This document shows positions 1 to 15,438 of a stretch of DNA of 64,000 nt, piece by piece. Position 1 is the first letter of the stretch; every line of letters starts with the position of its first letter. The position numbers were made by a program, and so were the translations under genes. The notes beneath the pieces are model-generated. The model was not told the DNA's origin. It saw only the letters and a list, made by a program, of their open reading frames with translations, and searched no databases. This DNA comes from an uncultured candidate division Zixibacteria bacterium (GTDB lineage Bacteria > Zixibacteria > MSB-5A5 > UBA10806): contig CAWDFP010000006.1 in NCBI GenBank assembly GCA_963801605.1, positions 864,001 through 928,000 on the forward strand, given 5' to 3'.

Positions 1-2203
1 TACCGATTGTCATACCGCTCATAACGTTCTGCCTCATACCGATCCCAATTCCACTATTTATCGTACCAACGTCCCCAAAACCTGTGAAAAGTGTCACGGT
101 CTTATCGAGCAGGTACATCGTAAAGTAATCCGCGGCGAGCTCTGGGAAAAAGCCCCCAACCAGGTGCCAATCTGTATCGATTGCCACGCGCCTCATCGGG
201 TACGCAAAATTTATTATGAATTGGGAATGTCCGATACCGATTGTTTGAAGTGTCATGCCAAACCAAATCAAACTATGGTCCGCGATGGCCAGACCATCTC
301 CATTACTATAGATACAACCGAAGTTAAAAATTCGATTCATCGCAATACTGCTTGCGCTCAGTGCCATACCGGAGCCAGCATTGCCCAACAACGTCCCTGC
401 GCTACAATTGTAACCAAAGTTGATTGCTCTATCTGTCACGCCGAAGTGGTTGCTACTTATAAAACCAGTACTCACGGTACGCTGGCCGACCGCGGCGATC
501 CCAATGCTCCCATTTGCCGGGATTGCCACGGTACGCACGGCATAAAAGATCATCGCACCACAAGCTCGCCGACCTATCCGACCCATGTGCCCGATCTTTG
601 CGGAAAATGCCATCGTGAGGGCAATAAGGCCGCTGTTCGTTACAAGGGTGACGAGCATAATATCGTCAGCAACTATGTTGAAAGTATTCACGGAAAAGGC
701 CTGCTGGAAAGCGGCCTGGTAGTTACCGCCATGTGCACCGACTGCCATACATCACATCATGAACTTCCCCACGACAACCCGGAATCAAGCGTCAATAGCA
801 ATAATATCGCTATGACTTGCGCCAAGTGTCATAACGGCATCTATGAACTTTACAGCAAGAGCGTTCATTTTGCCGACGGCAAAAAAACAGACAAGCCGCT
901 GCCGATTTGCAACGATTGCCATACATCGCATACAATTTCGCGCACCGATCAGGAAGGATTCAAGCTAAACATCATTAACCAGTGCGGCCGCTGCCATCAG
1001 GATGTATTAGAAACTTATTTCGAAACCTATCATGGCAAAGTGTCCAAACTGGGTTACACCGCTGCTGCTAAATGCTACGATTGCCACGGAGCCCATGATG
1101 TGCTTCCCACCTGGGATCCGCGATCGCATCTATCGCGTCAAAATATTGTGGCCACTTGCGGGAAATGCCATCAGGGTTCAAATCGCCGATTCGCCGGATA
1201 CCTGACCCACGCTACTCATCATGATAAGAAAAAATATCCGGTTCTATTCTACACATTCTGGTTCATGACTTTTCTTTTGATGGGCACTTTAACTGTATCC
1301 GGTATTCATACTGCGCTCTGGTTACCGCGCTCCTTCCAAATGATGAAAGCTCAAAAGAAGCTCAGAACCGCAAGCGCCGGCAAAGAATATTTACGTTTCG
1401 ATAGTCTGCCTCGCCGATTGCATATACTTGTAATTATCAGTTTTATCGGGCTGGCGTTAACCGGTATGACGCTGAAATTCTCTTATCTTGGATGGGCCCA
1501 ATGGCTCTCGCGAATTCTGGGAGGTTTCCAGTCGGCAGGATATATACACAGAGTCTGCGCGGTCATTACCTTCTTCTATTTTGGAACTCATGTAGTTTCG
1601 CTTATCCGTCAAAAACGGCGCGAAAATAAAACCTGGCGGGCATTCCTGTTCGGGCCCAATTCGATGATTCCCAATTGGAATGATTTTAAGGAATTCATCG
1701 GTTCGTTTAAATGGTTTGTGGGCCTTGGCCCCCGTCCCGAATATGGCCGCTGGACTTATTGGGAAAAGTTCGACTATTTTGCAGTCTTCTGGGGAGTCTT
1801 CATTATCGGTTCAACCGGATTGCTTCTCTGGTTCCCCGAACTGTTTACTCGAGTTCTGCCGGGTTGGTTTATCAATGTGGCGACCGTAATTCATTCGGAT
1901 GAGGCTCTGTTGGCGGTTGGCTTTATCTTTACGGTGCATTTTTTCAATACTCATTTCCGCCCTGAGAAATTCCCGATGGATACCGTTATTTTTACGGGAC
2001 GAGTACCCCTGGAGGAATTCAAAGAAGATCGTCCCAGAGAATACCAGGAGATGCTGGAATCCGGAAAACTCGAAGAGCGCTTGGTTGATCCTCTGCCGCC
2101 AATCGTAGTGCGCGGAGCAAAAATCTTCGGATGGTGTGCTCTTTCAATTGGACTTATTATGGTTCTACTGATTCTATATGCAGAGATATTTGGCTATAGA
2201 TAA
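1..2203 (+). CDS. Multiheme cytochrome c fused to a C-terminal cytochrome b (FdnI/HydC-like) domain, CbcL-like quinol oxidoreductase; 5'-partial
   Basis: The frame is open from position 2 (TDCH..CEKCH..). There are 12 CxxCH motifs in the 679-aa ORF, plus CEKCH and a truncated xTDCH upstream. The C-terminus has TM helices with conserved His and RWTYWEKFDYFAVFWG / IHSDEALLA motifs. Confidence 0.85.
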   Translation, partial: TDCHTAHNVLPHTDPNSTIYRTNVPKTCEKCHGLIEQVHRKVIRGELWEKAPNQVPICIDCHAPHRVRKIYYELGMSDTDCLKCHAKPNQTMVRDGQTISITIDTTEVKNSIHRNTACAQCHTGASIAQQRPCATIVTKVDCSICHAEVVATYKTSTHGTLADRGDPNAPICRDCHGTHGIKDHRTTSSPTYPTHVPDLCGKCHREGNKAAVRYKGDEHNIVSNYVESIHGKGLLESGLVVTAMCTDCHTSHHELPHDNPESSVNSNNIAMTCAKCHNGIYELYSKSVHFADGKKTDKPLPICNDCHTSHTISRTDQEGFKLNIINQCGRCHQDVLETYFETYHGKVSKLGYTAAAKCYDCHGAHDVLPTWDPRSHLSRQNIVATCGKCHQGSNRRFAGYLTHATHHDKKKYPVLFYTFWFMTFLLMGTLTVSGIHTALWLPRSFQMMKAQKKLRTASAGKEYLRFDSLPRRLHILVIISFIGLALTGMTLKFSYLGWAQWLSRILGGFQSAGYIHRVCAVITFFYFGTHVVSLIRQKRRENKTWRAFLFGPNSMIPNWNDFKEFIGSFKWFVGLGPRPEYGRWTYWEKFDYFAVFWGVFIIGSTGLLLWFPELFTRVLPGWFINVATVIHSDEALLAVGFIFTVHFFNTHFRPEKFPMDTVIFTGRVPLEEFKEDRPREYQEMLESGKLEERLVDPLPPIVVRGAKIFGWCALSIGLIMVLLILYAEIFGYR

Positions 2204-2940: not shown

Positions 2941-3835
2941 TTAGGATATTTCCGAATCGAATTTACTGGAAATTTGCTCAAGCCCCAAAACGCTCGCGCA
3001 GGCAGAGAATCTGAAGTAATCGAGTAAGCGATTGAGCTTTTCCTCTGCTAAAGTCAGATTGCCATATCGCGAGAAATTGACATAATCCATGCCTGCCGCT
3101 CTGGGATGATGCCTATCCAGCTCCCAGAGCTTCATATTAATTACGGCTGGATACCCCTTCTGATTAAGGCTTTTGATAGAGTTGAGCCCGAACCAGCCTG
3201 GGCAATATTCTAATGTTTTCTCCGAATCTGAAAACAACGCCTAATTTGCGACGGGCCGATTGCGGGATGGCAATGATCGAGCGTCCATCGGATATAGTTA
3301 TCGGAAAAGGCTTGAGACTTTCCATTCGAGGACTATCGGCGAGCAGGCTTGAGTCGTAGCGATATCCAGCCTCGGCGATCAGGCGATACAGCGAAAGGTT
3401 ATCGCGTGATAGATAGGGGCAAGTCGCTTTGTAGCCGTAAACGGGTTTACCGATGATATCTTCGAGGATTTCTCTGGAGCGTTCCAATTCACTTTTGATT
3501 TTATCAGAAGGCATTTTCCTGATATCCCCATGCGTGAATCCGTGGCTGGCGACCTCGTTGCCGCGCGAATCGATCAGGGCCACGACCTCGGGAAATTTAC
3601 GCGCCACCCAGCCCAGGATAAAGAACGTAGCGTGGGCTTTCTGTTTATCGAGAGTATCTAAAAGGTGAATGAGCAGAGGGATTATCCGCGAACGGGCATC
3701 AGGCGGCTCCATATCGGGATTCTCTACATGAAAGCGGTCTTCGATCTCGAAGGTCAGCATATTGTCCAGGACTGGGCGATAGTAATCCGGTGCTCTTTTT
3801 AACGATTTCGGGCTCATAATACTATGGTTCGGCAT
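2941..3835 (-). CDS. Polysaccharide deacetylase (CE4/NodB + DUF3473, exosortase/PEP-CTERM-locus type); one frameshift at ~3200
   Basis: ATFFILGWVA and ASHGFTH motifs. Removing one base of the run at 3200-3202 joins ..RILP to GWFG..WELD..HPR of the 2941-3237 frame. Confidence 0.75.
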
Positions 3836-3866
3836 GATTTACCCCCTTCTGAATATCGCCGCCGCC

Positions 3867-3895
3867 TTAAACACATTAATTCTCGAGAGTGTTCC
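3867..3895 (-). promoter_or_regulatory. ECF-type promoter GGAAC-N18-GTTTAA
   Basis: GGAAC ACTCTCGAGAATTAATGT GTTTAA, ~30 nt upstream of the deacetylase start; same spacing as the other copies. Confidence 0.6.
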
Positions 3896-4121
3896 GGTTG
3901 AAAACATTAGAAGGTAATAAAGGATGTTCTGCTTAAACAGATACCCGGCATAAAAAATCACCAATATTTAGGCTAACCACATTGATTTGAAAACAGGGTT
4001 TGGTGGAAATCGCGATTTATCATAAAGGCATCAAATGAGAAAATCACCCTTCAGGAATTCCCCAATCTTCCGAAGAATATACAAGATGACAACTTAGGCA
4101 GACTTTCGCGGAGGGATTACT

Positions 4122-5294
4122 TTGAACTCGCAACGCAAAACCAAGATTATGGTGGTAGTAGGCGCCCGGCCAAATTTTATGAAAGCCGCCCCGCTTATCA
4201 GCAGAATGAAATTGTTTCCGGATACTCTGGAGCCTATCCTGCTTCACACCGGCCAGCATTATGACCAGAAACTCTCCGGCCTCTTTTTCGACGAGCTCAA
4301 GCTTCCCAAGCCTGATATCTATCTCGGAGTCGGCTCCGGCAGCCATGCTGTCCAGACCGCCAAAATCATGGTTGAGTTCGAAAAGATCGTCATGGAGAAT
4401 CCTCCGGATCTCCTGGTGGTTTTGGGTGACGTCAACTCCACGGTCGCTTGCGCCCTGGTAGCTGCCAAGTGTCATATTCCGATCGCCCATGTCGAGGCCG
4501 GCCTGCGTTCGCTCGATATGGGTATGCCTGAGGAGATCAACCGAATCCTCACAGACCGCATCTCGAACTATCTGTTTGTAACAGAATTTTCCGGATACAG
4601 AAATTTGCTCGCCGAGGGGGTTGACGACAGCAAGATATTTTTCGTGGGCAATGTGATGATCGATTCTCTCAGGGCTCATCTTGATTTAGCAAATGAGCGT
4701 CCAATTCTCTCCGAGCTTGGATTAGAATCGAAAAACTACGCCCTCCTGACTCTCCATCGTCCGGATAACGTAGATAACGAGGCGACCCTGACGCCCCTTG
4801 TCGAGGCTCTCTCGACTCTGGCTCAGAAAATAGCAGTAATATTCCCATGTCATCCGCGCACAAGAAATAATATTGATAAATTCGAATTATCTCATTATTT
4901 TGGACCCCAAGGGATCAGGCTTATCGAGCCGGCCGGATACCTCGATTTTTTGAAACTCGAACGAGAAGCCGCTATGGTCCTCACCGACTCCGGCGGCATT
5001 CAGGAGGAGACCACCATTCTTGGTGTCCCCTGCCTGACTCTTCGCAAAAACACCGAGCGACCGGCGACGATAACCGAAGGCACCAACATTTTGGTTGGGC
5101 CTTATCCCGAGAGAATCCTGGCCACCGCCGAGAGTATTCTGAGCGGTAATATCAAAAAAGGCCAGATACCAAAATACTGGGATGGCAGGGCCGCAGAGCG
5201 GATTGTTGATGTCTTTATCGAGATCGCTGGGCAGCAGCCTCATCCCGTCAAGACCGGAACGACTCAAGAAAAAGAGGTCGTTTCCGTTGGATAG
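4122..5294 (+). CDS. wecB: UDP-N-acetylglucosamine 2-epimerase (non-hydrolysing)
   Basis: GARPNFMK, HTGQHYD, HVEAGLRS, PEEINR, TDSGGIQEE, TERP motifs. Confidence 0.92.
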   Translation: MNSQRKTKIMVVVGARPNFMKAAPLISRMKLFPDTLEPILLHTGQHYDQKLSGLFFDELKLPKPDIYLGVGSGSHAVQTAKIMVEFEKIVMENPPDLLVVLGDVNSTVACALVAAKCHIPIAHVEAGLRSLDMGMPEEINRILTDRISNYLFVTEFSGYRNLLAEGVDDSKIFFVGNVMIDSLRAHLDLANERPILSELGLESKNYALLTLHRPDNVDNEATLTPLVEALSTLAQKIAVIFPCHPRTRNNIDKFELSHYFGPQGIRLIEPAGYLDFLKLEREAAMVLTDSGGIQEETTILGVPCLTLRKNTERPATITEGTNILVGPYPERILATAESILSGNIKKGQIPKYWDGRAAERIVDVFIEIAGQQPHPVKTGTTQEKEVVSVG

Positions 5295-5308
5295 GGAAGG
5301 AGTAGCCG

Positions 5309-6295
5309 CTGAAATCATCATCCAAGCCTGTGGCGCTGATAACCGGAGGGGCTGGTTTTATTGGTTCGCACTTGAGTGATGCGCTGCTCAAGGCAGATTA
5401 CGTAGTGCGCTGTTATGACGATCTTTCACATGGCTCCATGGCCAATATAGATCCGTTCTTAAAGAATTCAAATTTTTCATATTGTATAGCTGACGTATGC
5501 GATAGCGTTAAGCTTAAAAGCTGGGTCGATGGATCCGATGTGATTTTCCACCTGGCAGCCAGAAAAATACCGCGTTATGGTGACGCCCTGGCGACACTGT
5601 ATGTCAACACCCATGGTACGCGAAATGTATTGGAGCTGGCCACCGAACAAAAGATCAAGGTTGTGCTGGCGTCTACATCGGATGTCTACGGAAAGGGCAC
5701 TCCACCGTTTAAGGAATATGATAACCTCGTCATCGGGCCATCTAATGTACGCCGCTGGAGCTATGCTGTCAGTAAGCTTTTTGACGAGCACATGGCGCTG
5801 GGTTTCTTTTGCGAAAAAGGTCTCCCCACCGTCACTTTACGTTTTTTCGGAAGCTATGGCCCCAGGAATCATCGTTCCTGGTGGGGCGGGCCGCAATCGG
5901 TATTTATTGAGCAAGCCTTAAAAGATGAGCCGCTGACTGTCCACGGCGACGGCCTTCAAACGCGCTCATTCACCTACATAGATGATCTCATTTCTGGAAT
6001 TGTTTTATCATCGCAAAAGGATAAGGCCGTGGGGCAGATTCTAAATCTGGGATCTGAGGAAGAGGTCAATATTCTAACTCTGGCTAATACCGTTAGCGAA
6101 TTGGTTTGGCCGGGCAGGGAACCTAAACTTAAATTAATTCCTTACGAGAGTTTTGGTGGCCATTATGAGGATGTCAGGCGACGGTTGCCCGATCTTACCA
6201 AATCCAGAGAAATTTTGGGATTTGAGTGGCATATCAAGCTCCGCGACGGCCTTGGCCGCACCATCGCCTGGCATAAGGGTACACCTTCCGCTTAA
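5309..6295 (+). CDS. NAD-dependent nucleotide-sugar epimerase/dehydratase (extended SDR)
   Basis: ITGGAGFIG, HLAA, STSDVYG, YAVSK motifs. The start is probably CTG at 5309 behind GAAGGAG; the ORF track gives GTG at 5330. Confidence 0.85.
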   Translation: MKSSSKPVALITGGAGFIGSHLSDALLKADYVVRCYDDLSHGSMANIDPFLKNSNFSYCIADVCDSVKLKSWVDGSDVIFHLAARKIPRYGDALATLYVNTHGTRNVLELATEQKIKVVLASTSDVYGKGTPPFKEYDNLVIGPSNVRRWSYAVSKLFDEHMALGFFCEKGLPTVTLRFFGSYGPRNHRSWWGGPQSVFIEQALKDEPLTVHGDGLQTRSFTYIDDLISGIVLSSQKDKAVGQILNLGSEEEVNILTLANTVSELVWPGREPKLKLIPYESFGGHYEDVRRRLPDLTKSREILGFEWHIKLRDGLGRTIAWHKGTPSA

Positions 6296-6386
6296 CAGAA
6301 ATACAGGCCGCCAAGGCAAATAGTATACTGCTAAGCCCTGATTGGTATTGAGATTAGTTATTGTTTTGCTTATAATTACCCCTTTG

Positions 6387-6415
6387 GGAAACAAATATAT
6401 ACTTTTGGAGTTATT
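6387..6415 (+). promoter_or_regulatory. Variant ECF-type promoter GGAAA-N18-GTTATT
   Basis: Same spacing as the other copies, with GAGTT at -10; upstream of the ligase operon. Confidence 0.4.
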
Positions 6416-6556
6416 ACGTGATTGGACATAATCGTAATGTGGCTCTGCTTACTTAATAACTGAATAGTAGTCGAGAGCCTAACGCAAACTTAGATATAGC
6501 CGATAATTTAAGTAAGCATCAACGCGAAAAGGTACAAAGCGGGTGAGGAAATAATC

Positions 6557-8075
6557 ATGAATCCGGCCATTGTTAGCGATTTTTTGATAAATTCGGCGCA
6601 AAAGCACCCCGACAAGATTGCTCTCTACTTTGGCGATAAAAGCTTTACCTATAATGAGATTTACGGACAGGCGGTAAATCTGGCCTCTTATCTTCACGCC
6701 AACGGCCTGGAAAAAGGGGATAGGGTAATAATTTATCTGGAAAACAGCCCGGCGGTGGTAATCTCTATTTTCGCAACTCTCCTGGCCGGTGGGGCTTTTT
6801 CTGTGGTGAACCAATCAGTTAAGGCTCAGAAATTCCTATATATCGTTAATAATTGCACACCGAAATTTATAGTCACTGATCAATGCCAAGATTGAGATGC
6901 TTTCGAAATTTAAGCTGCAGCAGGATATCCCCCGAATTATCACAGTCAACGGCCCCAGCGATTTATCGGTATCGTTTGATCAAATCGTCTCCGAAGAAGG
7001 TCAGGCACCCAATCTTCGCGTTATCGACTTAGATCTGGCATCAATAATTTATACATCAGGGTCTACGGGCGAACCAAAAGGCGTTACCCTTACTCATCGT
7101 AATATGGTCTCCGCCGCCAACTCCATCACGCAGTACCTTGGCAGCGCCGAATCAGATATCGTCCTTTGTATGTTACCGCTATCATTCGATTATGGACTCT
7201 ATCAGGTTTTAATTTCCTTCCTGGTTTCGAGTACGCTGGTACTGGAGCGCAAATTTGGTTATCCCTATGAACTTGTCGAAATAATCCATAAACGACAGGT
7301 TACCGGTTTGCCTTGCGTACATACAATGATGGCAATCCTGTTGCAGCTGGAGAATCCGGAGGCCCTGCAACTTTCATCAATACGTTATATTACCAACACC
7401 GGGGCTGCCCTGCCGCCGGCTTTTATACCTCGACTTAAAAGGGTTTTCCCCAACGCTGCCATTTTCTCGATGTATGGCCTGACCGAATGCAAACGTGTTT
7501 CCTACCTACCGCCCCAATATCTGGATACTAAACCAGATTCGGTGGGGATCGCGATGCCGAATACCGAGGTTTGGGTAGTAGATGATGATGGGAATTTTCA
7601 TGAAAGAGACGCTATCGGAGAACTCGTTATTCGAGGTTCGAATGTTATGCAGGGATATTGGAATGATCCTGTGGGCACGGCAAAGGTCCTGAGACCGGGG
7701 CGTTACCCCTGGGAAAAGGTGCTCTATTCGCATGATCTATTCAGGATCGATAAAGAAGGATTTCTGTATTTTTTAGGGCGTCGTGATGATATAATAAAAG
7801 TTAGCGGGGTGCGAGTTTCCCCCAAAGAGATAGAGAATGTCCTTTATCAGATAAATGATATTATTGAGGCCAGGGTTATGCCCGTCCCGGACGAAATACT
7901 TGGAAACGCGATCAAGGCCGAGGTTGTTCTTCGCGAAAATTCAACGCTAACGGTTGAACAGATATTGACCCATTGCAGAGCAAATCTCGAGGATACCATG
8001 GTGCCGAGTCAGGTTATTATCGTAATGAGCATACCCAAAACCGATAGCGGCAAAATTCTGAAACGTGCCAGTTAA
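6557..8075 (+). CDS. AMP-forming acyl-CoA/acyl-ACP ligase (adenylate-forming ANL superfamily); one frameshift at ~6886
   Basis: YTSGSTGEPKGV, MYGLTE, GRRDD and terminal SGK motifs. Removing one C at 6886-6887 gives DQCKIEMLSK and joins the two ORFs. Confidence 0.85.
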
Positions 8076-8111
8076 TTTTTCTAAAAGGATAGACAGGTCA
8101 TAGGCAGCCAG

Positions 8112-10100
8112 ATGTGCGGTATAGCGGGATATTTTCAGCTTGAGGGAAATGCACGCCCCGATAAGGAGCTTTTGGGGCGTATGGTGAATATTATCCGCCA
8201 CCGGGGACCGGATGAATTCGGCGCCTTCTTTGATGATAAATGTGTCCTCGGACAAGCCAGGCTTTCCATTATCGATCTTTCCACCGGTTCGCAGCCGTTG
8301 TCAAATGAGGATGGCAGCTTGTGGATTTCATTTAATGGCGAAATTTATAACTATGTCGAACTTCGGCCGGAGTTGGAGCGACTGGGCCATAAGTTTTGCA
8401 CTCATTCCGATACCGAAGTCATAGTCCATGCTTATGAGGAATGGGGGAAAAACTGTCTTTCCCGTTTTAATGGCCAATGGGCTTTCGCTATTTATGATAA
8501 AAAGAATAGTAAACTGTTTATAAGCCGGGATCGATTGGGGGTTCGTCCGATTTTCTATTCAACCCACAATGGCCGCTTCTACTTTTCATCGGAGATAAAA
8601 TCAATTTTCTGCGATCCGTCAGTCCCAAGGAAACTTGATTATGAGGGTCTCGATGAGATATTTACCTGGTGGACCACTGCCCCGCCACGAACGGCATTTG
8701 AAGGTATCAATGAACTTGAGCCGGGTGGATATCTCGAAATTAAGGATGGGAAAATAAATTCCGGCCGCTACTGGCAGATGGATTACCCCGAGGAGTATGA
8801 CCGAAATCGCAGTTTAGATTCCTGGGCCGAGGAGCTTCATGCCCTGCTTGTCGATTCTGTCAGGCTAAGGCTTCGCGCCGATGTGCCCGTGGGGGCTTAC
8901 CTTTCAGGTGGATTGGATTCCTCAGCTACTACGTCCCTGATTAAAAATTTTACCTCCAACCGTATCGAGACATTTTCCATTGCATTTCATGATAAGGCGT
9001 ATGATGAATCAGGCTATCAAAAGCAAGTCGCTGATTATTTGGGCACGAATCATCATCAGATCCATTGCGGTTATAAAGATATTGCGGATAATTTCCCCAA
9101 AGTCATCTGGCATACTGAACGGCCAATTCTGCGTACTGCCGCAACACCCCTTTATATGCTATCGGGATTGGTACGCGAGAATAATTTTAAGGTAGTATTA
9201 ACCGGTGAGGGATCGGATGAAATATTGGGCGGCTACGATATTTTCAAGGAAACCATGATTAGATGGTTCTGGTCGAAAAATCCCGATTCACGGATGAGGC
9301 CGCTTCTTCTTCAGAGGCTTTACCCAACGCTGCCGCTTTCAGCCAACAGAGCCAGATTTTATTTAGAGACATTTTATAAGGCAGGATTAAGCGAGATAGA
9401 TAAATATTACTTCTCGCATATACCTCGGATAAATACCACAACCAAAATTAAAGAATATTTCCTGCCCGATATAAAACAGGCATTGTGCAAATATGATACC
9501 CTTAAATCATTCGAACCATATATTCCTGAAAATTTTCAAAGGTGGCATCACCTGGCGCGAGCGCAATACCTGGAAGCTCGTTCGCTTCTTTCGGGCTATT
9601 TGCTTTCTTCGCAGGGAGATCGCGTGACAGCCGGGCATTCGGTCGAGGGACGTTTTCCGTTTCTCGATCATCGAGTGGTGGAGTTTGGATCGAGAATACC
9701 TCCCTGGCATAAAATTCTGGGATTGAAAGAAAAGTTTGTGTTAAAAAAGGCTATGAGAGGAGAGCTTCCACCTGAGATCACTGCGCGGGTGAAGCAGCCC
9801 TATATGGCTCCTGATTCCAATTCTTTTATGCAGCCCGATTCGCCCGCTTATGTGGCTGAAATGGTATCCGAAAAAATGCTTAAGAGTTATGGTGTCTTCG
9901 AACCGGGTTATGTAAGTAAGCTGCATGAGAAATGCCGCAACCTGTCGCATGCTCACCTATCTTTTAAAGATAATATGTCTTTTATTGGAATTTTATCGAC
10001 TCAGCTTTTAATCAAGCAATATATCGATGATTTCATTCCAGTGGAAAGTCTCAAACGGGATTGTTTTAAGATTTGGCAGGATCATTCGACGACGAAATAA
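8112..10100 (+). CDS. asnB: Asparagine synthase-type amidotransferase (glutamine-hydrolysing)
   Basis: N-terminal MCGIAG, HRGPD, FNGEIYN, LSGGLDSS, TGEGSDE, RFPFLD. Confidence 0.9.
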   Translation: MCGIAGYFQLEGNARPDKELLGRMVNIIRHRGPDEFGAFFDDKCVLGQARLSIIDLSTGSQPLSNEDGSLWISFNGEIYNYVELRPELERLGHKFCTHSDTEVIVHAYEEWGKNCLSRFNGQWAFAIYDKKNSKLFISRDRLGVRPIFYSTHNGRFYFSSEIKSIFCDPSVPRKLDYEGLDEIFTWWTTAPPRTAFEGINELEPGGYLEIKDGKINSGRYWQMDYPEEYDRNRSLDSWAEELHALLVDSVRLRLRADVPVGAYLSGGLDSSATTSLIKNFTSNRIETFSIAFHDKAYDESGYQKQVADYLGTNHHQIHCGYKDIADNFPKVIWHTERPILRTAATPLYMLSGLVRENNFKVVLTGEGSDEILGGYDIFKETMIRWFWSKNPDSRMRPLLLQRLYPTLPLSANRARFYLETFYKAGLSEIDKYYFSHIPRINTTTKIKEYFLPDIKQALCKYDTLKSFEPYIPENFQRWHHLARAQYLEARSLLSGYLLSSQGDRVTAGHSVEGRFPFLDHRVVEFGSRIPPWHKILGLKEKFVLKKAMRGELPPEITARVKQPYMAPDSNSFMQPDSPAYVAEMVSEKMLKSYGVFEPGYVSKLHEKCRNLSHAHLSFKDNMSFIGILSTQLLIKQYIDDFIPVESLKRDCFKIWQDHSTTK

Positions 10101-10195
10101 TAAACCAGGAGATATCAGGAGCTTATTCGGTTAAGGCAACCTATCAATATTGAAATATTATAATGTTTTGATAACGTTAAACAGGGAGAGAATCT

Positions 10196-11527
10196 ATGAT
10201 CGGTGTGAAAGACAGCGCCGAAGCCCTGAAGATAATTGATGCACAGGGCATAAAGTATATTCGGTTGTGGTTTACCGATGTACTGGGCACACTAAAAGGG
10301 ATGACCATTACTCGTTCGGAAATCGAGCATGTATTGGAATACGGGCAAGGGTTTGACGGCTCCTCAATAGAGGGTTTCGTCCGTATCGAGGAATCGGATT
10401 TGATGGCTCATCCCGACCTTTCGACATTTGCGGTTTTTCCCTGGGCAATCAATGGTCAGAAGATTGCCTCGGTTTTTTGCGATATCAAGACTCCTCAGGG
10501 CGAACCTTATATGGGCGATACCAGATATGTTTTAAAAAGAATGGTGGAGAAGCTCAAAGCCGAAGGTTACACCGCATATATGGGGCCGGAAATCGAATAC
10601 TTCTACTTTAAAAACTCGCACTCCGCCGAACCGATGGATAGCGGCGGATATTTCGATTATTCCACTTCTGAGGAAACCACGCATCTACGTAAAGCGGCTG
10701 TAGGAGCGCTCGAAGATATAGGTATTCCCGTGGAATGTTCGCATCATGAAGTGGCTCCCGGGCAGCATGAGATCGATCTTAAATATCAGGATGCTCTGCG
10801 CATGGCTGACTATGCAATGATGTATCGTTTGGTTATCAAGGAGCAGGCGTTAATAAAAGGGTATTACGCCTCCTTTATGCCCAAACCGATTTTTGGCGTT
10901 AACGGATCCGGTATGCATACTCATCAATCTCTGTTCAAGAATGGGCATAACGCCTTTTTCGATCCGAATGATCAATATCGCCTTTCTGATCTGGCCAAGA
11001 AGTATATTGCCGGAATCCTGGTTCATATTAAGGAAATTTGTCTGGTGACCAATCAATGGGTCAATTCATATAAACGTCTGGTTCCGGGCTATGAAGCGCC
11101 TGTTTATATTTCTTGGGGACGGCGTAATCGATCCTCATTGGTGCGGGTGCCGATGTATCAACTCGGCCGCGAAAGCGCTACCAGGATCGAACTCCGCAGC
11201 CCCGATCCGGCCTGCAATCCCTACCTTGCTTTTGCAGCCATGCTTGCCGCCGGCTATGAGGGCATCAAGAAAGGATATCCTCTTCCCGAGCCGATTGAAG
11301 AGAACATATTCGAAATGGATTCCAAAGCTCTAAGGCGTCGCAAAATTGATACTTTGCCAGGCTCTCTTATGGAGGCTCTTAATCTTTTTAGAAAATCGGA
11401 TTTAATGAAAGAGACCCTTAGCGATCATATCTTTGATACATTGGTTAACAATAAAACGGTCGAGTGGGATAATTTCAGAGTAGCTGTCACCGATTTTGAA
11501 ATAAACAACTACCTCAAAGCGCTCTAA
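10196..11527 (+). CDS. glnA: Glutamine synthetase type I (alpha-like)
   Basis: FDGSSI, HHEVAPGQHEI, FMPKP..NGSGMH, SYKRLVPGYEAP, ELRSPD. Confidence 0.9.
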   Translation: MIGVKDSAEALKIIDAQGIKYIRLWFTDVLGTLKGMTITRSEIEHVLEYGQGFDGSSIEGFVRIEESDLMAHPDLSTFAVFPWAINGQKIASVFCDIKTPQGEPYMGDTRYVLKRMVEKLKAEGYTAYMGPEIEYFYFKNSHSAEPMDSGGYFDYSTSEETTHLRKAAVGALEDIGIPVECSHHEVAPGQHEIDLKYQDALRMADYAMMYRLVIKEQALIKGYYASFMPKPIFGVNGSGMHTHQSLFKNGHNAFFDPNDQYRLSDLAKKYIAGILVHIKEICLVTNQWVNSYKRLVPGYEAPVYISWGRRNRSSLVRVPMYQLGRESATRIELRSPDPACNPYLAFAAMLAAGYEGIKKGYPLPEPIEENIFEMDSKALRRRKIDTLPGSLMEALNLFRKSDLMKETLSDHIFDTLVNNKTVEWDNFRVAVTDFEINNYLKAL

Positions 11528-11835
11528 GAGGAGATTAACATTCGCTGGGGGAAAAAACAGGTATTCGATGATCTCAAAAATCGGCAATACCGGAGTGTTT
11601 TGTTTAAATTCAAAACGATGAATGCCGATTATACTTGTAAAATGAATGGAAACATATTAAATAACTCGATCAATAGATTCGTTTCGCCCGGATGAAAGCA
11701 AGCAATTGCTGAATATTTCGTAGAAATAATTGTAGTTTAGGGCAAGGTAACGAACATGATTTCGAATCAGGACTAAGAGATTTAATTGAGTGAATTTTTT
11801 AGTCTCGCGATGCCTATTAAGGAGGAACGAAGAAA

Positions 11836-12075
11836 GTGCGTGAGGAAATAAAAAGCTTCATCATCAATAATTTTATGATGGGACGAAACCCGGAGGAATT
11901 GGTAGATTCTGATTCGCTGTTGAATAAGGGAATTATTGACTCCACAGGCGTATTGGAATTGGTAGGATTTTTGGAGGAGAGATTTAATCTCCAGGTCAAG
12001 GATGAAGAGCTTGTGCCTGAAAACCTCGATTCCGTAAATAATTTGATAAACTATATTCAGAAAAAACAGAGTTGA
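11836..12075 (+). CDS. Acyl carrier protein
   Basis: 79 aa, acidic, GIIDSTG phosphopantetheine site, PENLDSV; AGGAGG RBS. Confidence 0.9.
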   Translation: MREEIKSFIINNFMMGRNPEELVDSDSLLNKGIIDSTGVLELVGFLEERFNLQVKDEELVPENLDSVNNLINYIQKKQS

Positions 12076-12150
12076 GCAATCAACGATATTTTAAGGCGGA
12101 CGAGAACAGCATTTGTTATTCGCCTTTTTTTCTTTCACAAGGAGCTTAGC

Positions 12151-13113
12151 TTGAGATTTTCGAGGGGACTGATACGATTGGATAGTGAAGTGGTGGTCGC
12201 GGGGCTTTTGGAGCGGTTGCGGGAACAGATATTTGTGACGATGAAACGTGGTGGTGCGGTGGTGGGAGTCTCCGGGGGGATCGACTCCTCGGTGATGGCG
12301 GCTTTATGCTCCCGGGCACTTGGTCCGGAGAAGGTGGTGGGGGTGTCGATGCCGGATAAGGACAACTCGGCAGCCTCTAAGGATCTGGCTAAGGAACTCT
12401 CGGAGAAGTTTGGTTTTAAGTATCTGACGGTTGATATCACTCCGGCTTTGGAGGGTGCGGGCTGTTACCGTCTTCGGGAGGAGGGGTTTCGGGAGGTCTT
12501 TCCGGACTGGCGGGATGGCTGGAAGGCGAAGATCGTGCTTCCTCAGAACGTATTGGAATCTGGCAGGCTTAATGTTTATAGACTGGCGGTGGAGTCCCCC
12601 TCGGGAGAGAAGTGGGAGAAGCGCTTACCGCTGGGGGCCTATCTGAAGATCGTGGCAGCTTCTAACATGAAGCAGCGGATGAGGATGCTGACCTTGTACT
12701 ATCAGGCAGAGGAGCGGAATTATGCGGTTGTAGGGACAGCCAACAAGAATGAGCATTATCAGGGATTTTTCGTGAAGTATGGGGATGGCGGCTGTGATTT
12801 GAGACCTCTTGGGGAGTATTACAAGACGCAGATATTTCAGTTGGCGGAGTATTTAGGGGTCCCGGAGGAGATTCGGAGCAGGACGCCCTCGACGGAAACG
12901 TATCCCTCGGAGGTAAGCCAGGAGGAGTTTTTCTTTGGCTTGGACTTTGCGACCCTGGATTTATTGTGGTTAGCCAAGGAGGGCAAGTATAATCCGGCGG
13001 AGGTAGCCGAGGAGATGGGCTTGACACCAGACCAGGTGAAGAATGTCTGGCGGGACTTAGACCAGAAACGGCGCACCACCGAATACCTCAGAATGCCGCC
13101 GCTGGGACTGTAA
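12151..13113 (+). CDS. nadE: NH3-dependent NAD+ synthetase-like (N-type ATP pyrophosphatase)
   Basis: GVSGGIDSS PP-loop, NMKQRMRM, GTANKNE..GFFVKYGDG; no glutaminase domain. Confidence 0.8.
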   Translation: MRFSRGLIRLDSEVVVAGLLERLREQIFVTMKRGGAVVGVSGGIDSSVMAALCSRALGPEKVVGVSMPDKDNSAASKDLAKELSEKFGFKYLTVDITPALEGAGCYRLREEGFREVFPDWRDGWKAKIVLPQNVLESGRLNVYRLAVESPSGEKWEKRLPLGAYLKIVAASNMKQRMRMLTLYYQAEERNYAVVGTANKNEHYQGFFVKYGDGGCDLRPLGEYYKTQIFQLAEYLGVPEEIRSRTPSTETYPSEVSQEEFFFGLDFATLDLLWLAKEGKYNPAEVAEEMGLTPDQVKNVWRDLDQKRRTTEYLRMPPLGL

Positions 13114-13137
13114 AGTCATTTAAGAAAGCAGTAATGC

Positions 13138-13176
13138 AACTGCCGAAGATTCAAGAAGGGATCTTCGGCAGTTTTT
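13138..13176 (+). terminator. Intrinsic terminator
   Basis: AACTGCCGAAGAT..ATCTTCGGCAGTT followed by a T-run. Confidence 0.85.
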
Positions 13177-13199
13177 GTTTATATCCGGTTTATCCGGAT

Positions 13200-13928
13200 C
13201 TAAAGCGAATCTGGCCCCGTAGTAAAATTCCAGATCGGGCCCGGGGTTTCATTCCCGTGATTATCCTTTGCGACGATTTTCCAATAATAGATTGTATTGG
13301 GATGGTATGAATAACCGATCAAATCATATATTGTGTCATTTATTGTATTGACCAATGTGCTATCCTGATCAATGGTCCAAGTATCCGTCGTAGCATCGCC
13401 GTCAAGATTGGCGGTTGCTGTGCAAGTAAAAGTATTGATTGCTGAACTAATGCAATAACTGTAAGCGTTAGTTGAATCGATATTGATATTAAGAAGGCCA
13501 AATGATTGGTTTTGCCGGTTTGCATAAGAGCCATTTAGGCAATAAGCCCCGTACTGTTGATGATAAGCATTCTGCATAGAAAAAATTTGGCTTAAAAGCG
13601 CTCGCCCCTCGGCCTGAATCATCCATTGTGATCGGTGAGAATTCACCTCCCAATTATGGCCGACAAAGTTAGAGCCCCAATCGGTATTCATTCCCAGGTA
13701 AAAATCATATCTGAGTGTATCCTGGTGATTGGGATCAGTTGCTTGCCAGGAGAATATGGTGTTAACGCCAACACCGGTAGCGCCATCTTCGGGGGATGGA
13801 TTAAAAGGCGCATTTGGAGGAAGATTTTGAATATTCGACTCATTGTTGACCTTCTGATCGGAACAGGAAAGTGCGACAATTAAGAATAGCACGATTAGGC
13901 CGGTTATTATGCGGGATGTGGCTTTCAT
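13200..13928 (-). CDS. Lipoprotein: FN3/Ig-like domain interrupted by a type IV pilin-like head domain
   Basis: Lipobox ALSC. PSPEDGATGV..FSW..YDFYLG and PNTIYYWKIVAKD..GPIWNFTT flank QAEGRALLSQIFSMQNAY..FTCTATANLDGDATTDTWTID. Confidence 0.65.
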   Translation of the reverse strand: MKATSRIITGLIVLFLIVALSCSDQKVNNESNIQNLPPNAPFNPSPEDGATGVGVNTIFSWQATDPNHQDTLRYDFYLGMNTDWGSNFVGHNWEVNSHRSQWMIQAEGRALLSQIFSMQNAYHQQYGAYCLNGSYANRQNQSFGLLNINIDSTNAYSYCISSAINTFTCTATANLDGDATTDTWTIDQDSTLVNTINDTIYDLIGYSYHPNTIYYWKIVAKDNHGNETPGPIWNFTTGPDSL

Positions 13929-14184
13929 CTTTCCTCTCCTGCATTTCTATTTCGATTGAATTAATCAATACTAAATTAGTCTATTATGTTTATCGACATT
14001 TTTAACTTGGTGTTAATAGGATATAAAAAAGATGCAAAACCTCGTAACGGCGTTAAATTAATGAAGTATCTAAAAAAGCTTGATTTGTGTATTTTCGTAA
14101 TTAGCTTATTAGTAAATGTAGTTGTCGAGCCGGTGCGATTGCTGGTAATAATCATTTGCCGAACGGCTTTAAATACTGGAGTTA

Positions 14185-15438
14185 ATGATGGGACATTTAG
14201 TCGGTAAAGATTTATATCGAAAGCTTGGTAGAAAAATTGATGGCCTTAGTATGCGCGCGCCCTGGAACGACTCTTTCTACTCCATTCTCAAAGAGCTATA
14301 TACATCTGAAGAAGCCGAAATCATCCTGAAGATGCCATATACCCTGGGGACTCTCGATCAAATCGCAATGGCTACCAAATATGAACCATCCAGATTAAAA
14401 AAAATATTGGATGGTTTGTGCGTCAAGGGCCTGGTGATGGATATCTACATGAATGGTAAATTCCATTATATCGTTTCGCCCCTTGTAATCGGCATTTTTG
14501 AATTTACCATGATGAGAACTGGAGAAGGACTCAACACCAAAGAATGGGCTCGCCTTTTCAATGACTATATGCATGGCAGCGATGCCTATTATAAAGCCAA
14601 TTTTGGCAACGGTCAAAAAGTTGGGCCGCTAAGGGCATTACCTTATGAGGACACTCTGGGCGAGCATGTGGAGATCATGGATTACGAGAAGGCCTCCTCA
14701 ATAGTCGATGCCAATAAGGATTTTTCGGTTGGACTCTGTTCATGCCGTCATGAGAAGCTCCATCTGGGAACGAAAAAGTGCGACATTCCGCTTGAGACAT
14801 GTACCACTTTTGGGACCGGAGCCAAATATATGGCTCATCGCAAGCTGGCCAGGCTTATTTCGAAATCTGAAATGCTCGATAATCTGGCGAGATTTAAGGA
14901 AATGGGACTTGTGGTTTGCGCTGATAATGTTAAAAAGGATTGTTCATTTTTTTGCTTTTGTTGTGGATGTTGCTGCAATGTTCTTCTGGGGATCAGCGAG
15001 TTTGGCTATCCAAACTCCGTTGTAACATCAAGTTTTATTGCTAAGCCCGATAGCGAAAACTGCACCGCCTGCGGAACTTGTGTCGAGGCTTGTCCCATTA
15101 AGGCCATTTCTCAGACTTCTGACGAGAACCCCATAGTTGATGAGACAATTTGTATGGGATGTGGAGTATGCGCTCTTAAGTGCCCCAATGATTCAATGAA
15201 ACTTCACAAACGCTCTCAACAGGTGCTGCATCCCGAGACGATGCTTCAACGTTTGATTCTGCAGTGCCTCGAACGCGGCACTCTTCAGAATTTGATCTTT
15301 GCCGATCCGAACCGAGTCGACCACAAATTTATGCGCGTCTTCGTGGGTGCATTCTTAAATCTTCCCCCGGTCAAGAAAACCTTGATGGGCGAAAGCCTCA
15401 GGTCTTCATTTTTGGATTTTATTCAAAAGCGGGCCTGA
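14185..15438 (+). CDS. Cys-rich iron-sulfur protein with a 2x[4Fe-4S] ferredoxin domain
   Basis: CTACGTCVEACP and CMGCGVCALKCP, plus CSCRH..C..C and CFCCGCCC clusters. Confidence 0.8.
   Translation: MMGHLVGKDLYRKLGRKIDGLSMRAPWNDSFYSILKELYTSEEAEIILKMPYTLGTLDQIAMATKYEPSRLKKILDGLCVKGLVMDIYMNGKFHYIVSPLVIGIFEFTMMRTGEGLNTKEWARLFNDYMHGSDAYYKANFGNGQKVGPLRALPYEDTLGEHVEIMDYEKASSIVDANKDFSVGLCSCRHEKLHLGTKKCDIPLETCTTFGTGAKYMAHRKLARLISKSEMLDNLARFKEMGLVVCADNVKKDCSFFCFCCGCCCNVLLGISEFGYPNSVVTSSFIAKPDSENCTACGTCVEACPIKAISQTSDENPIVDETICMGCGVCALKCPNDSMKLHKRSQQVLHPETMLQRLILQCLERGTLQNLIFADPNRVDHKFMRVFVGAFLNLPPVKKTLMGESLRSSFLDFIQKRA

Follow-up and report, generated by a model that had tools for sequence, protein, structure and literature searches.

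A kit of ligase, carrier protein, AsnB-like and NadE-like enzymes in a candidate division Zixibacteria genome, with a tentative aspartate-based route to a surface-polymer substituent

We present here an analysis of a gene cluster in a 64,000-nucleotide stretch of DNA (hereafter the window; positions 864,001 to 928,000 of contig CAWDFP010000006.1, forward strand) from an uncultured candidate division Zixibacteria bacterium (assembly GCA_963801605.1). Four genes of the cluster encode a ligase, a stand-alone acyl carrier protein (ACP), an AsnB-like glutamine amidotransferase, and a NadE-like PP-loop enzyme; a fifth, glnA, encodes a glutamine synthetase (GS). Judged by its protein families, the quartet is a copy of one carried by plasmid pSymB of Sinorhizobium meliloti and is referred to below as the kit. 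We propose, at a probability of roughly 45%, a route in which the quartet charges the carrier with aspartate and modifies it in two ATP-consuming reactions before the product is passed to an amino sugar of a surface polymer, the GS being probably an ordinary one. The quartet in the window is a real but ordinary member of a kit that is widespread (143 of 239 Zixibacteria genomes, by the NadE-like gene) and chemically unsolved. The embedded GS, which had drawn a sequence-only reading to this locus, is explained by linkage, and this lowers the appeal of the particular window. The window is part of what we number contig C6 of the source genome, whose completeness is 87%, and the cluster is laid out as follows.

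6557-8075, + strand: kit ligase, broken by a frame change near 6881 into two open reading frames (ORFs; 6557-6895 and 6897-8075)
8112-10100, + strand: AsnB-like glutamine amidotransferase, N-terminal Cys and PP-loop intact (TIGR01536, 525 bits; cut-off, 267)
10196-11527, + strand: GlnA, short-type (GSI-alpha-like) glutamine synthetase (TIGR00653, 497 bits; cut-off, 429)
11836-12075, + strand: stand-alone carrier protein (ACP; PF00550), attachment serine Ser36 conserved
12151-13113, + strand: NadE-like PP-loop enzyme, PRK00876 type 1 (NF002048, 411 bits; cut-off, 313)
13138-13173, + strand: intrinsic terminator with a 15-pair stem

The S. meliloti operon runs asnB, the ACP gene SMb20651, the ligase gene SMb20650, and nadE (Ramos-Vega et al. 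2009, PMID 19118366, cited through PMC7232532 and PMC5686131; publications are cited here for the passages that bear on each point), and in 2017 its function was said to call for more study (PMC5686131). No publication giving the product of the quartet was found in a search that lay outside subscription papers and supplements. The match to this operon, which the sequence-only reading had suggested, held up: the same four families are adjacent, with identities of 53% for the ligase, 42% for the NadE-like protein, 49% for AsnB, and 43% for the ACP. The window differs in its gene order, interleaved GS gene, adjoining glycan genes, and frameshifted ligase. Adjacent copies of the four genes also occur on plasmids of Mesorhizobium, Azospirillum, Rhizobium, and Shinella (115 plasmid records match, 6 of which were examined), Methanosarcina is among the controls that carry the kit, and the quartet recurs without glnA both in the plasmid loci and in relatives. 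Among 41 genomes of the class, the NadE-like protein exceeds the cut-off in 28, and an AsnB ortholog and a kit-type ligase are each found in 27; the same 13 genomes lack all three. Across 239 Zixibacteria genomes with a completeness of at least 85%, the NadE-like gene is present in 143, AsnB in 113, both in 108, and neither in 91; related genomes are not independent, so these counts are descriptive and carry no statistical test. Adjacency elsewhere and co-occurrence in Zixibacteria together indicate a grouping beyond chance.

The source genome holds three nadE-like copies and three kit ligases, two of which belong to a second type, type B. The third kit copy (L002:10573-13078, contig C10) comprises an ACP gene and a type B ligase gene fused in-frame to a NadE-like domain, near a gene for a FemAB-like XrtA-system protein. 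Both same-genus relatives show epimerase-asnB-glnA-ACP, asnB following the epimerase gene without an intervening ligase gene. A metagenome scan with AsnB returned mainly distant paralogs and no close strain. A separate cluster on contig C6 (1255029-1259071) encodes a phosphopantetheinyl transferase, a ligase, an ACP, and an enzyme resembling those dependent on pyridoxal phosphate (PLP), and it resembles an acyl-ACP-dependent amino-lipid or sphingolipid module.

The best solved relative of the window's ligase is VinN (3WV4/3WVN, E value 2e-38; the next entry has 4e-19), whose pocket for 3-methylaspartate and L-Asp is formed by D230, F231, S299, K330, and R331 (PMC11253843). Aligned to 3WV4, the window's ligase has D, Y, T, K, and R at these positions. 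AfcQ, an enzyme of the VinN type, loads L-Asp via its side-chain carboxyl onto a stand-alone carrier (PMC12186527). Given the VinN aspartate pocket, the window's ligase, here called type A, is predicted to be a beta-aspartyl-ACP ligase; as the first step of the pathway, it would adenylate the side-chain carboxyl of L-aspartate and form beta-aspartyl-S-ACP. The FDYG and TECKR motifs are common to this ligase and that of S. meliloti, and the latter acylates its own ACP in vivo in Escherichia coli (PMC7232532). The sequence-only reading had the ligase load an acid onto the ACP; that claim is narrowed here to a predicted aspartate, attached through its side chain, with chemistry on the carrier as the presumed setting. 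As in VinN/VinL (vicenistatin) and AfcQ/AfcK (AFC-BC11), a stand-alone adenylation enzyme with equivalents of D230, K330, and R331 and a shortened loop is paired with a stand-alone carrier; unlike those systems, the window has no PLP decarboxylase or polyketide synthase beside the ligase, has two PP-loop enzymes, and has a predicted glycan acceptor. Type B ligases have one extra loop residue and keep the Arg but are without the amino-binding Asp. This points to a non-amino dicarboxylate as their substrate, so that aspartate would not be universal to the kit.

Frame changes are frequent in this assembly. They appear in 14 of 62 test rows (proteins of relatives placed on the source genome; a few rows overlap), a count that takes in the window's ligase and a neighboring deacetylase as well as clpX, trigger factor, and EPSP synthase. 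Error is therefore the likelier cause of the ligase split, and the frameshift is probably an assembly error; among contigs from one DNA sequencing run, in which the source genome has a small share, none spans the break, and no RNA run was listed. The TGD ATP-binding motif of the ligase reads SHD, the T and G being common to all 17 other aligned type A ligases, and two isolated intact type A ligases have 7 and 9 changes at otherwise invariant columns. The window's ligase may be decaying. An unlikely alternative is that it is a pseudogene and that the ACP is loaded in trans, by one or other type B ligase of the source genome, with a non-amino dicarboxylate (malate or 2-oxoglutarate), the unit then not being aspartate-based here. 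This would fit the frameshift and six changes at invariant columns, the gene order of the two same-genus relatives, the type B ligases that precede both other nadE-like copies, the precedent of AmcH for 2-oxoglutaryl-ACP ligases (PMC10698177), and a lactate/malate dehydrogenase-family gene that adjoins the kit in one locus. It is countered by the frame-changed test rows, from which most breaks are likely errors, by the 60-67% identity of both ligase halves to intact orthologs, and by the tree position of the window's nadE-like gene, which groups with genera carrying type A ligases.

On the proposed aspartate pathway, two further enzymes would edit the loaded unit. Domains related to them form nitriles or thioamides on carrier-bound units. 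In Zixibacteria, the ligase and ACP are accompanied by a pair of PP-loop enzymes, and four such pairings were seen. The usual one is AsnB with NadE-type 1, AsnB being present in 102 of 118 genomes with a single NadE-like gene. NadE-type 1 with NadE-type 2 is the second; AsnB is missing from 19 of 23 two-copy genomes, and both types surround ACP and ligase in 10 inspected loci. The third, NadE-type 2 with a WbuX-like protein and no kit AsnB, occurs in 9 genomes, which belong to two families (loci inspected, 5). The fourth, an AsnB paralog with a WbuX-like protein and no NadE-like gene in the fetched stretch, is seen in 4 loci, 2 of them near contig ends. NadE types 1 and 2 differ at diagnostic positions, and the combinations sort as {AsnB or NadE-type 2} plus {NadE-type 1 or WbuX-like}. 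AsnB and NadE natively amidate carboxylates (PMC3376133), and WbuX/WbpG make sugar amidines (PMC10607449). The window's NadE-like enzyme shares the NadE fold and PP-loop with NadE and WbuX/WbpG, and a WbuX-like protein takes the place of type-1 NadE in some relatives; no WbuX-like protein was found in the source genome. Because the window's enzyme is of type 1, it would activate an amide and not a carboxylate, and the pattern suggests an amidine or nitrile as the outcome. In the second step, going by the chemistry of its family, the AsnB-like enzyme would amidate the free alpha-carboxyl with glutamine nitrogen; in the third, as the substitutions suggest, the type-1 NadE-like enzyme would adenylate a second carbonyl of the carrier-bound unit, most simply that of the new amide, to give an amidine or nitrile. 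Two ATP-dependent amide-forming enzymes had been proposed from the sequence; two ATP-using PP-loop enzymes are present, and the second may act on an amide without forming one.

A broader and doubtful generalization is that slot X (AsnB or NadE-type 2) converts a carboxylate to an amide, that slot Y (NadE-type 1 or WbuX-like) converts the amide to an amidine, nitrile, or thioamide, and that bacterial glycans bear an undescribed amidino- or cyano-acyl group derived from aspartate or a related dicarboxylate. If this is true, thousands of "NAD synthase" (PRK00876) proteins would be carrier-dependent amide-activating enzymes. The two-slot pattern is a new result here; it predicts which enzymes complement each other and so offers a cheap test of the mis-annotated "NAD synthase."

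The four-way pattern fits equally well a rather improbable reading in which the substrates of the PP-loop enzymes are nucleotide sugars (uronic acid becoming uronamide, and acetamide becoming acetamidine), the ligase and ACP separately supply an N-acyl group, and the clustering reflects a single glycan that requires the three modifications together. The O-polysaccharides of Vibrio vulnificus and Pseudoalteromonas rubra hold 4-malyl, uronamide, and acetimidoyl groups in one repeat (PMC3210612), the amidines made by WbuX/WbpG are those of sugars, and NadE natively binds a dinucleotide, its core motifs being kept in the NadE-like protein. This placement on nucleotide sugars is opposed by the constant association of the NadE-like gene with ACP and ligase where the sugar genes are variable or missing, by the existence of ligase-NadE fusions, and by an insertion peculiar to the NadE-like clade.

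That insertion, of about 65 residues (about 102-166), interrupts a protein with the NadE fold, a PP-loop of the form SGGxDS, and the NadE core motifs. It is absent from every solved NadE and carries conserved Tyr, Asn, and Arg residues, and an atlas search with it gave nothing above 0.78. A quick tree of 76 rows, made without duplicates L068 and L076 and without matches shorter than 270 residues, places 73 kit NadE-like proteins in a single clade and separates them from 3 housekeeping rows (SH-aLRT, 99; outgroup branches are long). The housekeeping NadE of the source genome is a PRK13980-type short synthetase encoded directly behind a nitrilase-family glutaminase gene (L003:8109-9835, contig C7). 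The NadE-like protein is thus not the housekeeping copy, as had been suspected, and would not make NAD; its insertion, separate clade, and accessory distribution set it apart from NadE. Ligase and NadE-like domains are joined in 6 of 15 longer homologs, 3 of which are clean fusions, and the junction on contig C10 is the same as in P0121; these fusions tie the NadE-like enzyme to the ligase. The closest named record of the NadE-like protein is a Zixibacteria metagenome-assembled genome. A predicted complex of the NadE-like dimer with the ACP scored 0.04, which gives no verdict and is not used as evidence.

The second nadE-like copy (L001:10813-11775, contig C6) is 98% identical to that of the window (12139-13101 in this comparison), lies behind a type B ligase gene, and occupies the position used by two relatives (G007 and G010) for a type B kit. 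Between the two copies, 18 codons are changed (12 of them silently), and the flanks are not the same, which makes an assembly artifact unlikely. Third-position G reaches 50% and 49% in them, the top two values among 1806 ORFs (mean, 0.24; SD, 0.04); both tuf copies come next at 0.44, and the neighboring translation genes are normal. Gene conversion between the nadE-like copies is the likely cause of this codon skew. A sense-strand G bias seems common to near-identical duplicates in the source genome, as would be seen if gene conversion favored G. A B12-binding radical SAM gene (L001:13897-15390) runs divergently from this pair of type B ligase and nadE-like genes. Type 2 NadE-like genes also occur as orphans, away from any ACP, ligase, or AsnB gene, at L058:2848-3810 and L061:6140-7111 and in L074 and L075.

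The AsnB-like gene is the sole AsnB gene of the source genome, which also encodes AsnA. Of the separate housekeeping genes that the sequence-only reading proposed to look for, the PRK13980-type NadE and a second, longer GS were found, and a second AsnB was not. E. coli-type asnB exceeds the cut-off in none of the 41 class genomes, and the kit AsnB may, from this distribution of genes, also make free asparagine in some relatives. A truncated AsnRS paralog is present in 2 of 5 checked genomes with AsnB but without gatB or a strong asnA and could fill the asparagine gap. Among the 14 genomes of the family (G000-G013), none has gatB, and several also have neither asnA nor E. coli-type asnB. It is highly improbable that the locus is a housekeeping nitrogen operon (GS, asparagine synthetase, and NAD synthetase) with an unrelated ligase and ACP. 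AsnB and GS exceed curated cut-offs, as such an operon would predict, and genomes with the kit AsnB are often without gatB, asnA, and E. coli-type asnB, 3 of the 5 checked also being without the AsnRS paralog; yet the source genome has AsnA and a two-subunit housekeeping NadE, and the NadE-like protein forms its own clade, is missing from 96 of 239 genomes, and tracks the ACP and ligase.

In the last step of the proposed pathway, a transferase encoded elsewhere (of GNAT/FemAB or hexapeptide type) would move the unit to a de-N-acetylated sugar, as the neighboring genes suggest. N-(aspart-4-yl) and 4-malyl groups occur on bacterial glycans (PMC10609480 and PMC3210612). Glycan or exosortase labels lie within 8 kb of 40 of 61 NadE-like loci, whereas they were seen at 0 of 16 control loci and, with the source genome cut into bins, in 18 of 183; the count leans high because the labels were taken from the same neighborhoods. 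In Azospirillum and Shinella, the kit is found inside exopolysaccharide (EPS) clusters, and exosortase and EpsI genes flank it in several relatives, in keeping with the sequence-only reading, which placed such ligases and amidotransferases in exosortase/PEP-CTERM EPS loci. Glycan and exosortase genes are frequent neighbors of the kit, and a surface glycan is the putative acceptor of its product. Exosortases occur in kit-less genomes too, and neither they nor the FemAB-like genes track the kit closely; both were set aside as its transferase. The residues D35-S36 of the ACP are invariant in 15 aligned sequences, and its best solved relatives are stand-alone peptidyl carrier proteins. Its best NCBIfam matches, the ornithine-lipid and cispentacin ACPs, both fall under the cut-off.

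These matches would accord with a lipid or small molecule as the product in place of a glycan substituent, which we consider quite unlikely. The S. meliloti ligase acylates its ACP from an operon that has no glycan neighbors, and 21 of the 61 Zixibacteria loci have no glycan label within 8 kb. The same ligase, SMb20650, fails to complement fadD (PMC7232532), VinN-type motifs are present, and genes for glycans, deacetylases, chain length, and exosortases recur beside the kit, both in several families and in Azospirillum and Shinella, all of which argues against such a product.

DltA and DltC carry out carrier-mediated aminoacylation of teichoic acid, and the kit would work in the same way, with an amino-acid adenylation enzyme and a small carrier serving to decorate the envelope; the ACP matches DltC structures weakly. 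The kit differs in its ligase pocket and tailoring enzymes, and no MBOAT protein (DltB) or DltD was found among 11 proteins from window positions 3164-15438, the rest of the genome not being searched. The families TIGR03098, TIGR03108, and TIGR03006 of XrtA/PEP-CTERM EPS systems are the best or near-best matches of the window's ligase, AsnB, and deacetylase, and all three score under the cut-offs: 471 against 592 for an intact ortholog of the ligase, 463 bits against 817 for AsnB, and 164 against 276 for an intact ortholog of the deacetylase.

Several observations weigh against the aspartate pathway as proposed. In the window's ligase, a frameshift is accompanied by six changes, the TGD motif among them, at columns that do not vary in 17 other type A ligases, and the ligase of most relatives in the order is of type B, without the amino-binding Asp. 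The NadE-like protein retains much of the NadE core motif set, and 13 of 27 genomes with the kit AsnB show neither gatB nor a strong asnA, compared with 2 of 14 without AsnB. The two-slot pattern may rest on few events, as the tandem type 2 copies form one clade (support for the type 2 group, 86), and the WbuX-like proteins score under the TIGR03573 cut-off. As to the acceptor, the S. meliloti quartet has no adjoining glycan genes, no transferase gene was found in the window, and FemAB-like genes were found in just 13 of the 23 remaining genomes of the order, while some kit-less genomes have them too.

The position of the GS is accounted for by the genes upstream of the kit, which comprise the following.

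4122-5294, + strand: WecB, non-hydrolysing UDP-GlcNAc 2-epimerase (TIGR00236, 331 bits; cut-off, 210)
5330-6295, + strand: NAD-dependent nucleotide-sugar epimerase/dehydratase (PF01370)
2941-3835, - strand: polysaccharide deacetylase, XrtA-system-like (under the cut-off), divergent and in two ORFs

In all 24 genomes of the order, glnA lies behind the epimerase gene, directly or with asnB between (wecB-epimerase-(asnB)-glnA; loci L162-L190 and window 4122-11527), counting one genome (G001) in which wecB is beyond the contig end and another (G007) in which the block was read across two contigs through asnB. The asnB or ACP gene touches glnA in 12 of these; the remaining 12 have the kit elsewhere or not at all. 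The wecB-epimerase-glnA arrangement is an old block of the order, joined by the kit in half of the genomes, and the GS stands beside the kit because the block was there and kit genes moved in. Outside the order, neither wecB, epimerase, nor kit genes were found near glnA in any of 14 genomes (17 class-level genomes fetched), and of the 10 genomes there with gatB, 8 have it no more than 5.4 kb from glnA; the GS tends to adjoin glutamine users. The best PDB matches of the window's GS are glutamine synthetases of 442-467 aa of the short biosynthetic type (E value, about 1e-133). It or an ortholog occurs in 40 of the 41 class genomes, 12 of the 13 kit-less ones among them; identity is 58-92% in the 39 of 40 relatives that have it. 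It is likely the lineage's ordinary enzyme, traveling with sugar genes and not a member of the kit, and would supply glutamine here as for the whole cell.

The sequence-only reading had taken the GS for an unusual, dedicated addition to the cassette, and this did not survive the comparison. A dedicated role, whether gamma-glutamylation of the carrier-bound unit or private glutamine supply, now seems very remote. It could draw on the 12 order genomes with asnB or the ACP gene directly beside glnA and on the second, longer GS of the source genome. It is contradicted by the orthologs in kit-less genomes, by the 12 other order genomes in which glnA stays with wecB and the epimerase, by the kit loci outside the order, none of which has glnA nearby, and by a canonical GS sequence. 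A gamma-glutamyl ligase for other amines was also considered and rejected; TIGR03105 and NF045547 score under the cut-off, and the distribution is against it.

The remaining layout agrees in most respects with the sequence-only reading. Gene calls and family matches place the cassette behind WecB and the nucleotide-sugar epimerase with a divergent deacetylase, and the five co-directional genes end at a strong terminator; the splits in the ligase and deacetylase had gone unmentioned. The terminator has a folding z of -6.1, and none of 200 shuffles was equally stable. A hairpin between the ACP and nadE-like genes has a z of -0.56 against shuffles, no extra stability, so that an internal terminator there is unsupported. 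Gaps of about 260 bp 5' of the ligase and 308 bp between glnA and the ACP gene, together with promoter-like sites at 6348-6376 (11 of 12 matches) and 10073-10101 (10 of 12), which are consensus matches only, allow for more than one transcript across the five genes. An Rfam scan of window positions 3000-14500 gave no match. Converging on the terminator, a gene at 13200-13928 (- strand) encodes a predicted lipoprotein of 242 aa with a weak pilin-like middle (ComP_DUS, E value 0.009). At the left end of the window, positions 164-2203 (+ strand) encode what appears, from many CxxCH motifs, to be a large multiheme cytochrome c joined to a membrane part that resembles cytochrome b.

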